A DNA stretch of 64,000 nucleotides from IMG/VR virus record IMGVR_UViG_3300021256_000005, one strand, 5' to 3'. Source of the stretch: a virus. Below the pieces are notes generated by a model that saw only the letters and a list, made by a program, of their open reading frames with translations, was not told the DNA's origin and did not search any database. Position 1 is the stretch's first letter, and each line of letters starts with the position of its first letter. The position numbers and the translations under genes are program-made. This document shows, in pieces, positions 20,784 to 21,453 of the stretch.

Positions 20784-20868
20784 CAGTCGTGTCAACGACT
20801 GACGATAGCGTGACGTTGCATCGCAACGGAACGCGCCCCGCCGACAGGCGGCGTTGCCGACAGGCAAC
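20784..20868 (+). other. GC-rich multi-hairpin island 1 (four consecutive short hairpins)
   Basis: CAGTCG-tgtcaa-CGACTG (20784-20801); CGTTGC-atc-GCAACG (20814-20828); CCGCC-GACA-GGCGG (20838-20851); GTTGCC-GACA-GGCAAC (20853-20868). The last two share the core GCCGACAGGC. Confidence 0.8.
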
Positions 20869-20962
20869 TGTATAATAGTATTATATATATTTATATTATA
20901 TATAATATATATTATATTTATATATATATATATATTATATATTTATATTACATACACTTAGA

Positions 20963-21028
20963 CAGCTACGCCAGTAGCTGGCTAACGGTGCTGGTATTGC
21001 GTAGCAATGCCTGCGCCGAAGCGTCGCA
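20963..21028 (+). other. GC-rich multi-hairpin island 2
   Basis: CAGCTAC-gcca-GTAGCTG (20963-20980). GGTATTGC-gta-GCAATGCC (20993-21011), with one T.G pair that is a wobble only in plus-sense RNA. TGCG..CGCA bulged hairpin (21012-21028). Confidence 0.8.
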
Positions 21029-21051
21029 GACATATATATTATATATATTAT

Positions 21052-21084
21052 TATATATATATATATATATATATATATATATAT
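21052..21084. repeat. (TA)n dinucleotide microsatellite, about 16 units
   Basis: Uninterrupted alternating ta run read directly from the sequence. Confidence 0.9.
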
Positions 21085-21154
21085 TTATATATTATACAAT
21101 AAGATAATATATTTGTCAAGTATAAAATTATAATTATTTTAATAATATATTTAA

Positions 21155-21214
21155 TTAAATATATTTAAGTATTATATTATATACTATATATTTAGTTAAA
21201 TATATTTAAGTATT
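21155..21214 (+). repeat. two direct copies of the ~20-bp element TTAAATATATTTAA-GTATT
   Basis: Perfect 14-bp palindrome TTAAATATATTTAA followed by GTATT, at 21155-21173 and 21196-21214 (41-bp spacing). Confidence 0.85.
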
Positions 21215-21383
21215 ATTATAATATATAATTATTTATATATTATTATATATCACTGTATATTATTATATAATAATTAAGCACCATAGTTATTATATATTAT
21301 ATATTACTAATTACATACATCATCAATTACATACATTACTAATTACCAGAGTTATTATTTTATTATTGTTTATTGTTTATATA

Positions 21384-21453
21384 CTTTTGGCTCCTTTTGC
21401 TAACGCAAAAGATCACCAAAAGTTCGTATTCCTTCGCAAGCGAAGAAATACGA
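21384..21453 (+). other. GC-rich island 3: two nested (stem-in-stem) hairpins
   Basis: First hairpin: outer stem CTTTTGG/CCAAAAG with inner CTTTTGC-taac-GCAAAAG (21384-21422). Second hairpin: outer TCGTATT/AATACGA with inner CTTCG-caag-CGAAG (21424-21453). Confidence 0.8.

Follow-up and report, generated by a model that had tools for sequence, protein, structure and literature searches.

We analysed a 64,000-nt stretch of viral DNA (the window; IMG/VR record IMGVR_UViG_3300021256_000005), which is from an uncultured SPbeta-like gut phage of at least 77 kb, and in it a set of three GC-rich hairpin islands embedded in TA-rich DNA. The islands stand at the opening of a 4.9-kb gap, 20565-25447, that holds no credible open reading frame (ORF) and lies between two divergent gene arms. 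On the left (- strand), a UvrD/PcrA-like helicase gene (18825-20564) adjoins the island zone, and the same arm carries a 926-aa polymerase, HU-like, YonJ-like and YonG-like proteins, a ROOL RNA and the terminase. The right arm (+ strand) encodes ArdC-like and GmrSD-like proteins and two tyrosine recombinases, followed by the replication module; the replication genes in the window are those for a DnaB-like helicase, Pol III alpha and nucleases. Together with the TA tracts around them, the islands probably act in cis as single-strand hairpins, in a region for control or origin function that is prone to unwinding.

The islands comprise nine hairpins in total and fold far beyond shuffled sequence. 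Their parts are as follows.

20781-20868, + strand: island 1, 66% G+C, hairpins A to D back-to-back
20784-20801, + strand: hairpin A (island 1), 7 bp, loop GTCA
20808-20834, + strand: hairpin B (island 1), 6 bp plus 4 bp around a tandem GA/GA internal loop, loop ATC
20838-20851, + strand: hairpin C (island 1), 5 bp, loop GACA
20853-20868, + strand: hairpin D (island 1), 6 bp, loop GACA
20961-21031, + strand: island 2, 61% G+C, hairpins E and F
20963-20980, + strand: hairpin E (island 2), 7 bp, loop GCCA
20987-21017, + strand: hairpin F (island 2), 13 bp with two T.G pairs and one T/T mismatch, loop GTA
21009-21031, - strand: alternative hairpin of island 2, with one wobble pair
21383-21453, - strand: island 3, 41% G+C, two stem-within-stem hairpins (H and I), better fold on the - strand
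21383-21423: hairpin H (island 3), nested stem-within-stem
21424-21453: hairpin I (island 3), nested stem-within-stem, followed on the - strand by ACUUUUGG

An earlier note, made from the letters alone, had described three hairpin islands in easily melted TA DNA, and its statements about the sequence hold on re-examination. The flanks it had called near-pure TA are pure A/T runs, the two hairpins at the end of island 1 (C and D) share a core, GCCGACAGGC, at 20840-20849 and 20856-20865, and island 3 is indeed two stem-within-stem structures, H and I. Folding, which that note had asked for, shows that all three islands beat dinucleotide shuffles, as RNA and as DNA. RNA folds were scored against 200 such shuffles on both strands: island 1 reached -49.6 kcal/mol on the + strand (z -5.5) and -44.3 on the - strand (z -3.4), island 2 -37.8 (z -3.9) and -28.5 (z -1.2), and island 3 -28.9 (z -6.5) and -39.6 (z -8.4), respectively. 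Folds with nearest-neighbour DNA parameters gave z-scores of -2.5 to -7.9 overall, and of -4.2 to -7.9 for the better strand of each island. Perfect GC-containing hairpins are about 10 times denser in the islands than the window average, and there are hairpins at both borders of every island. On the - strand of island 3, a single G.U pair makes stem I a continuous 14-bp stem. A stem with a T.G pair (20993-21011) had been taken to point to plus-sense RNA; the stem is real, forming the top of F, but a wobble alone cannot fix the strand. Strand assignment by G.U pairs alone was in fact rejected, since such pairs are too few: two on the + strand, both in F, and two on the - strand, one of them in I and the other in the alternative hairpin of island 2.

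The islands do not resemble known RNA elements. Rfam scans, by gathering threshold and by E-value, returned only chance-level matches to pestivirus untranslated regions (E 0.7-4), and ARAGORN found no tRNA at the islands; a tRNA-like or Rfam RNA identity was rejected in view of the lack of a covariance-model or tRNA match. Compared with one another, with the remainder of the window and with all fetched loci, the islands show no significant similarity. Mobile GC clusters and REP-like palindromic repeats were rejected as well, there being no dispersed related copies in the window or the fetched loci. That none of the hairpins has a U-tail, as had been claimed, is true of eight of the nine, which are without a U-tract on either strand and thus lack the hairpin-then-U-tract form of an intrinsic terminator. 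It fails for hairpin I, the sole hairpin flagged by a terminator scan, which on the - strand has ACUUUUGG downstream of its stem.

The island hairpins also differ from other hairpins of the window in the chemistry of their loops. A survey took in every perfect hairpin of the window that has a loop of 3 or 4 nt, and loops beginning with G and ending with A were found in 6/9 island hairpins, against 10/68 elsewhere (Fisher p=0.002). On the + strand these G..A loops are GTCA, GACA, GACA, GCCA and GTA, in islands 1 and 2, and on the - strand GTTA, in H of island 3; the closing pair is C:G in five of the six and T:A in hairpin A. All four G-N-C-A tetraloops of the window are in islands 1 and 2, on one strand. 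The five island tetraloops are all G-N-Y-A, with no GNRA and no UNCG loop among them, whereas the G..A tetraloops elsewhere in the window are GNRA in 4/4 cases.

Such loops recall the DNA mini-hairpin motif, a G-N-A or G-N-N-A loop closed by two G:C pairs, with a sheared G.A pair (GCGNAGC, GCGNNAGC or CCG..AGG, with CC..GG stems accepted). Five matches to this motif fall in 685 nt, compared with 0.16 expected (0/300 shuffles), and four are at hairpin apexes, which by sequence belong to this class of DNA:

20841 and 20857, + strand: mini-hairpin CCGACAGG, island 1 apexes
20999, + strand: mini-hairpin GCGTAGC, apex of F, GCGNAGC type
21399-21406, - strand: mini-hairpin GCGTTAGC, apex of H, GCGNNAGC type

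Mini-hairpin motifs form extraordinarily stable DNA hairpins, beyond what conventional thermodynamic or structural models account for, and their RNA forms are far less stable (PMC13037366). Melting temperatures are 72 C for GCGACAGC, 69.5 C for GCGTTAGC and 70 C for GCGTAGC; the variants for which extraordinary stability in DNA has been measured include the heptamer GCGTAGC and the loops GACA and GTTA (PMC13037366). The motifs have been found at the complementary-strand origins of G4, St-1 and alpha3, at ssiA of RSF1010 and at N4 early promoters (PMC13037366). Other signs of polarity agree with the loops: the + strand is favoured in B by its tandem G.A and in F by its G.T pairs, and the - strand in I by its G.T.

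The DNA around the islands is as unusual as the islands themselves. Every A/T-only run of at least 25 nt in the 64-kb window (9/9) is inside the ORF-free region, and TRF reported periods of 2 and 10-39 nt in the TA tracts. The pure A/T tracts at the islands are these.

20678-20771: 94 nt
20879-20950: 72 nt
21032-21096: 65 nt, with (TA)16 at 21052-21083; holds the -10 hexamer and start region of a perfect promoter
21121-21168: 48 nt
21211-21250: 40 nt
21457-21554: 98 nt

A 94% relative, L004 (Logan SRR29381473), was found via its 91%-identical helicase protein, and its contig runs up to the left edge of island 1 and stops precisely there. In this relative, the first TA tract has 21 nt less and is still without G or C. 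That the tract has changed in length and yet stayed G/C-free argues for a physical property of the DNA rather than an RNA requirement. The general idea, put forward in the earlier note, that the hairpins act as DNA thus gains support from the loop class, the non-GNRA loops and the maintained A/T purity; the link that it drew to coliphage N4 does not, as discussed below.

Promoters and a repeated motif are interspersed with the islands and tracts:

20603-20631, - strand: sigma-A-type promoter TTGACT-17-TATACT, directly 5' of the UvrD-like helicase/YonO-like RNA polymerase operon; conserved in L004
20656-20684, + strand: promoter-like TTGACA-17-TATTTT with TG extension, 10/12; both hexamers conserved in L004
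21091-21119, - strand: perfect promoter TTGACA-17-TATAAT, 12/12, between islands 2 and 3
21155-21214, + strand: two copies, 41 nt apart, of the 19-nt motif TTAAATATATTTAAGTATT, iteron- or operator-like

The promoter that had been proposed at 20656 is thus present as a match and, like the helicase promoter, conserved in the 94% relative. The two stand back-to-back, with that at 20656 aimed at the first TA tract and island 1. The 21119 promoter faces it from about 430 bp away and is directed leftward, via (TA)16, island 2 and island 1, into the helicase/polymerase operon. There are three perfect consensus promoters in the window, compared with 0.18 expected. The other two (TTGACA-N16/17-TATAAT), at 36279-36307 and 61109-61136, are both on the + strand and 5' of + strand genes, and for this reason the 21119 promoter is probably real as well. 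For its early genes, the phage appears to depend on promoters of the host type with consensus sequence. A further promoter match (11/12) is at 22038 on the - strand.

The 19-nt motif copies at 21155 and 21196 are just upstream of the perfect promoter. For the motif in the form TTAAAnnTnTTTAAGTATT, 13/14 window matches fall in the ORF-free region, against 0.46 expected. One copy is at 22277-22295, and three inverted copies, 38 nt apart, are at 24620-24714, upstream of the right-arm promoter at 24815; these three distal copies are conserved in the relative L017. The motif therefore forms two inverted clusters upstream of strong divergent promoters, 21119 (-) and 24815 (+). The source phage is present in several assemblies, with samples ERZ12302812, SRR873596 and JGI 3300002641 among those that contain it, and one contig, NODE_590, is one base off in 21.7 kb; that sole difference, 21169 G->T, is inside the first motif copy. 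A scan for the 38-nt-spaced motif pair found unrelated low-GC phages only. A TGATTGA 'iteron' was also considered and dropped, having no clear enrichment.

Beyond the island zone, the spacer from 21600 to 24450 is C-poor and T-rich on the + strand. Its GC skew is about 0 at 21.7-22.2 kb, climbs steadily to +0.90 at 23.95-24.2 kb and is -0.5 at 24.45 kb. This spacer is the fastest-evolving part of the locus, with 45-84% identity and many indels relative to L017. A non-coding block at 24300-24650 is 90-95% conserved, above the neighbouring gene. TTTTGAC motifs recur in it, and TTTTGACAT-TT-ATGTCAAAA, at about 24475-24497, is a perfect palindrome; the block is probably the operator or control region of the right arm. 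Just 3' of the 24815 promoter, 24846-25447 (+) is about 600 nt of ORF-free DNA with normal GC. Its fold, aligned with L017, has 154 predicted pairs, seven of which show compensatory double changes between the two sequences, making it a candidate for a large structured leader or non-coding RNA; it had no Rfam match.

Relatives of the locus are few. A second contig of the 94% relative, reached through homologues of the right-flank protein, spans only 23152-26036, at 79% identity. In samples SRR29381473 and SRR31242626, the arms have 94% identity and the spacer about 79%. Exact island strings gave no match in IMG/VR, the helicase and the 191-aa flank proteins found no relatives there, and six-frame translations of the islands used as protein queries had no matches. 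Helicase homologues at 43-47% are in a different gene context, without a divergent gap, and scans of metagenomes and species genomes found relatives at 22-26% identity only. A polymerase-profile scan of IMG/VR yielded 79 loci, the best at 45-47% identity, none with long TA runs and none with an upstream ORF-free gap of >1.5 kb. Two distant YonO-polymerase phages (25% identity) do have a 1.4-kb ORF-free region 5' of the polymerase operon (L059 6917-8374; L061 7272-8706), in which GAACAGATGTTCGA sites recur along with tracts of the TATATACTATA type and T/G-rich 'gattgaatttgatt' repeats. It may be general for the polymerase-operon junction to have a complex non-coding control region.

How might these features work together? 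Our first choice, held tentatively and with rather less than even confidence, is that the islands are single-stranded-DNA (ssDNA) hairpin signals in an easily unwound replication-initiation zone. In this model, the TA tracts and the three islands would constitute one DNA-level element beside the helicase/polymerase operon. We imagine that the A/T tracts would serve as an unwinding element, where the duplex would open easily, and that in the opened duplex the GC-rich islands would fold as very stable, strand-specific ssDNA hairpins. The stable forms are predicted on the + strand to the left of an AT-rich core, 21032-21380 (islands 1 and 2), and on the - strand to its right (island 3). Given this polarity, synthesis templated by the hairpin-bearing strands would proceed outward both ways. 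A primase or polymerase would start on the hairpin-bearing strand, with the flanking hairpins acting as 'single-strand initiation' (ssi) signals, and the two iteron-like sites and the strong promoter could aid opening. We infer that it is the DNA form that acts, that opening happens in vivo and that the hairpins serve priming or loading.

The arrangement of the core is consistent with this model. The DNA between islands 2 and 3 contains the perfect promoter and two copies of the significantly over-represented 19-nt motif, and stable hairpins lie on opposite strands around 21032-21380, as they do around an origin core flanked by ssi signals. Two copies of that motif are inside the core and three more at 24620-24714; they might be initiator-binding repeats but might equally be operators of the two divergent promoters. 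The island zone is also the switch point of gene orientation and of GC-skew sign, and to its right the + strand of the ORF-free DNA is rich in G+T, as a rightward fork would lead one to expect. The phage has replication genes of its own, the UvrD-like helicase gene adjoins the zone, and the Enterocloster phages described below keep hairpin pairing in TA-rich tracts at the syntenic position. An initiation zone would account for most of the features together: the A/T purity, the unique clusters, the loop polarity, the promoter and motifs, and the strand switch.

Several points weigh against an initiation zone. The statistics on loops and polarity were noticed post hoc, on nine hairpins, and the stems are short (5-8 bp, one of 13). 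Extrusion or exposure of the island hairpins in vivo is something we would predict from sequence, and convergent transcription would place positive, not negative, supercoils over islands 1 and 2. The replication genes are 30 kb from the island zone. No primase domain, including RepB'- or DnaG-type, was recognised in the window, and a 338-aa ORF beside the DnaB-like helicase, which with its neighbours is encoded at 52603-55097, had no Pfam match. Gene orientation confounds the GC-skew switch, and a simple fork model does not fit the gradient of skew along the spacer. A second origin-like arrangement, a TA tract with three 38-nt-spaced motif copies, is present at 24.52-24.72 kb, and operator function at the two divergent promoters would suit the 19-nt motif equally well. 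No homologous island copy was found in IMG/VR, the JGI metagenomes or the GTDB genomes. Lastly, an RNA role is equally accessible, given that the consensus promoters on both sides (20656 + and 21119 -) would transcribe the islands. Hairpins that form in an R-loop, on its displaced non-template strand, would be consistent with the observed polarity as well.

The main rival reading, possible if on balance unlikely, is that the islands are instead structured modules of non-coding RNAs, transcribed by host RNA polymerase from the flanking promoters. One candidate would be a + sense RNA from 20656, antisense to a 520-nt leader of the helicase/polymerase operon from 21119; the 22038 (-) match offers a further start. 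Structured, GC-rich islands surrounded by AT-rich DNA are a classic sign of non-coding RNA, hairpins at the island ends would protect RNA ends, and RNA tolerates both G.U pairs and tandem G.A. The hairpins persist in the fold of the entire 521-nt leader, and island 3 is terminator-like on its - strand. One can envision that the islands yield small stable RNAs or products of processing, bind proteins through their hairpins, exert antisense control on the polymerase operon, or serve in an A/U-only context as terminators or insulators of a non-canonical, bidirectional kind. The right arm, too, has a long structured leader (24846-25447, with its seven compensatory pairs against a relative), and so long structured leaders seem to be a habit of this phage. 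However, the lack of an Rfam or tRNA match, of U-tracts and of any GNRA or UNCG loop among the five tetraloops does not favour RNA. The strongest promoter would transcribe island 2 in a sense that has no significant structure (z -1.2), and island 3, with its opposite polarity, would need a separate transcript from a weaker, distant promoter. Nor does an RNA role give any reason for G/C-free stretches of 65-98 nt that stay pure despite a change in length. If the islands do act as RNA, convergent antisense control of a phage polymerase operon would be implied.

A different possibility concerns the phage polymerase itself. The islands could be ssDNA hairpin start sites read directly by the YonO-like RNA polymerase or a phage primase, with synthesis outward into both arms from a TA-melted bubble; we consider this quite improbable. 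The 926-aa polymerase (16035..18815) matches the Pfam RdRP family, PF05183, and has 25% identity to SPbeta YonO; it is a YonO-type two-barrel enzyme, not one of the T7/N4 type. YonO transcription in SPbeta starts downstream of yonO/yonN and upstream of yonK, not 5' of its own gene (PMC5467207), and our survey of the window showed no G..A-loop hairpin at the equivalent place. Were direct reading by a phage enzyme true, an N4-like hairpin-promoter logic would have evolved independently in a different polymerase family.

The chance is similarly slim that the zone has no dedicated function, with TA tracts that are low-complexity spacer made by slippage and islands that are old terminators or decayed palindromes. 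The TRF periods of 2 and 10-39 nt, the variation of tract length between strains, the fast evolution of the remaining ORF-free region (45-84% identity, many indels) and the uniqueness of the island sequences would all be expected of such DNA. Decay would hardly leave fold z-scores of -4 to -8, a non-random loop class with coherent polarity and A/T tracts of maintained purity, and the analogous hairpins of Enterocloster phages (see below) keep their pairing by compensatory changes.

Another function that might be placed here is packaging, in that the zone could be or contain a pac site cut by terminase. Restriction mapping put the SPbeta pac site between or around yonR and yonP, the syntenic gap just 5' of the polymerase operon (PMC8270828). 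The ends of three independent contigs map to island 1 or its edge (20782, 20832 and 20864), and in related phages a number of contigs stop within TA-rich DNA shortly 5' of the polymerase gene. We nevertheless hold a pac site to be very unlikely. The syntenic yonR-yonP gap of SPbeta is without TA tracts or hairpin islands, and in the cultured Enterocloster phage PMBT24 the pac site determined by PhageTerm is record position 1, about 9 kb from the TA/hairpin region (PMC11035940). Other contigs of the same or a related phage break at 23152, 25300 and 25401, and low complexity, low coverage or strain variation accounts for breaks that are scattered in this way all across the ORF-free region. On account of these other breaks, the contig ends at island 1 were rejected as evidence of a physical terminus. 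More widely, contigs or genomes of YonO-polymerase phages (L007 1-20; the starts of L065, L082 and L090; the CB457P1/P2 and CB473P3 records) begin or end in TA-rich DNA, a few hundred bases 5' of the polymerase operon. The TA-rich region upstream of this operon is either a regular assembly breaker or near a real end.

Least probable of all is that the islands are hairpin promoters or primer-synthesis sites used by the YonO-like polymerase in the manner of the N4 virion RNA polymerase: although the stable hairpins are on the template strand of the adjacent arm (+ for leftward genes, - for rightward genes), F shares the GCGNAGC loop type with N4 promoters and the promoter recognised by YonO is still unknown (PMC5467207), the only phage polymerase of the window is PF05183/YonO-like and not a T7-like single-subunit virion enzyme, SPbeta YonO starts upstream of yonK, 3' of its own gene, the islands have no consensus (no shared -11, -10, -8 and +1 bases) and mostly tetraloops, with a GNA triloop in F only (1/9), where N4 has a 3-nt loop, and the polymerase gene is itself under sigma-A promoters located in the zone. 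The N4-type link made in the earlier note is therefore not upheld.

Two other features of the window are recorded here. A full-length ROOL RNA (Rfam RF03087, 300 bits) is at 11126-11683 (-), between the YonJ-like and YonG-like late-operon genes. SPbeta has a non-coding RNA, unannotated, immediately 3' of the site where YonO starts transcription (PMC5467207). A Pnkp-like kinase/HD phosphatase (47453-48328), a T4-type RNA ligase (48325-49485) and tRNA-Gln (49621-49694) lie side by side at 47453-49694 and have the look of a module for tRNA repair.

SPbeta-like phages with a YonO polymerase are common in gut Firmicutes, yet next to nothing is known about their origins of replication and their types of promoter. 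If the island zone is an initiation site, it would give such origins a testable sequence definition, pure A/T unwinding tracts plus strand-specific hairpins with G..A loops. It would also extend 'mini-hairpin' start signals from ssDNA phages, IncQ plasmids and N4 to a large double-stranded DNA (dsDNA) gut phage, and would explain the frequent assembly breaks just 5' of the polymerase operon.

The closest analogue by position is in the cultured Enterocloster phages PMBT24, CB457P1/P2 and CB473P3. These have a TA-rich, ORF-free region of 0.6-1.2 kb directly 5' of the YonO-like polymerase gene, a syntenic position, with two hairpin elements, located as follows.

L010 8990-9260; L011 1080-1331; L013 1306-1414; L015 227-479: Enterocloster hairpin elements
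L016 1332-1440; L069 9182-9433: Enterocloster hairpin elements, continued

The stems differ between the phages and pairing is kept. The outer stem of element E1 is AAAATATTTGT/ACAAATATTTT, AAACCCTG/CAGGGTTT or AAACCCTA/TAGGGTTT, depending on the phage, and the inner stem is T7GC/GCA7 in one phage and CCTCTTTGC/GCAAAGAGG in another. A 13-nt loop, TCCACTTCGTTMC, is conserved in one of the two elements, and CB473P3 has two copies of it on different stems. In CB457P1, the TA-rich region includes a run of about 48 T. Like the zone studied here, the Enterocloster region is between divergent arms, abuts the polymerase operon promoter and has length-variable TA tracts with hairpins. Unlike the islands, its hairpins are AT-rich and long (arms up to about 45 bp) rather than GC-rich clusters, and their loops are not of the G..A type. 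There is no detectable sequence similarity between this region and the islands, and homology of island 3 to the E1 hairpin was rejected, the alignment being unconvincing. By analogy, the Enterocloster region indicates only that hairpins in TA-rich DNA at this junction can be under selection.

N4 early promoters have a 5-7-bp stem, a 3-nt loop with 5'G and 3'A, a closing G:C pair and conserved -11, -10, -8 and +1 bases; the hairpins extrude at physiological superhelicity and are stable on one strand only (PMC4496689). The islands share with them short GC-rich stems, a G..A loop and, by prediction, one-strand stability, and in both cases three elements lie in non-coding DNA beside genes to be expressed. 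They differ in that N4 promoters, with their 3-nt loops and shared consensus, are read by a T7-like enzyme, whereas the islands accompany a YonO-like enzyme, have mostly tetraloops and lack a consensus.

A second comparison is with phage and plasmid origins of the transcription-activated or iteron type, such as the T7 primary origin, T4 oriF and oriG, lambda ori and the ori of lactococcal phage c2, which is intergenic between early and late genes. These, like the island zone, combine a strong promoter by an AT-rich unwinding element with repeated protein-binding motifs and adjacent palindromes, and the c2 ori is likewise between divergently transcribed early and late arms. The island zone differs from them in A/T tracts that are far longer and purer and in hairpins that are multiple and strand-specific.

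The G4, St-1 and alpha3 origins and RSF1010 ssiA and ssiB, like the islands, are clustered short GC-rich hairpins that fold in ssDNA, with apexes GCGAAAGC in G4, GCGTTAGC in St-1 and alpha3 and CCGAAGG in ssiA (PMC13037366). The apex of island 3, GCGTTAGC, is an octamer identical to that of the St-1/alpha3 complementary-strand origin hairpin, and ssiA and ssiB, like the islands, are signals on opposite strands around an AT-rich origin core. The hosts of these signals are of different kinds, as G4-type phages are ssDNA phages and RSF1010 is an IncQ plasmid, whereas the phage of the window has a dsDNA genome of at least 77 kb. The islands also differ from the G4 and ssi systems in having up to four hairpins each, mostly with G-N-Y-A tetraloops, and pure A/T flanks of 65-98 nt. 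Judged from the sequence of a single genome, hairpin start signals of a known kind would here be at work in a large dsDNA gut phage.

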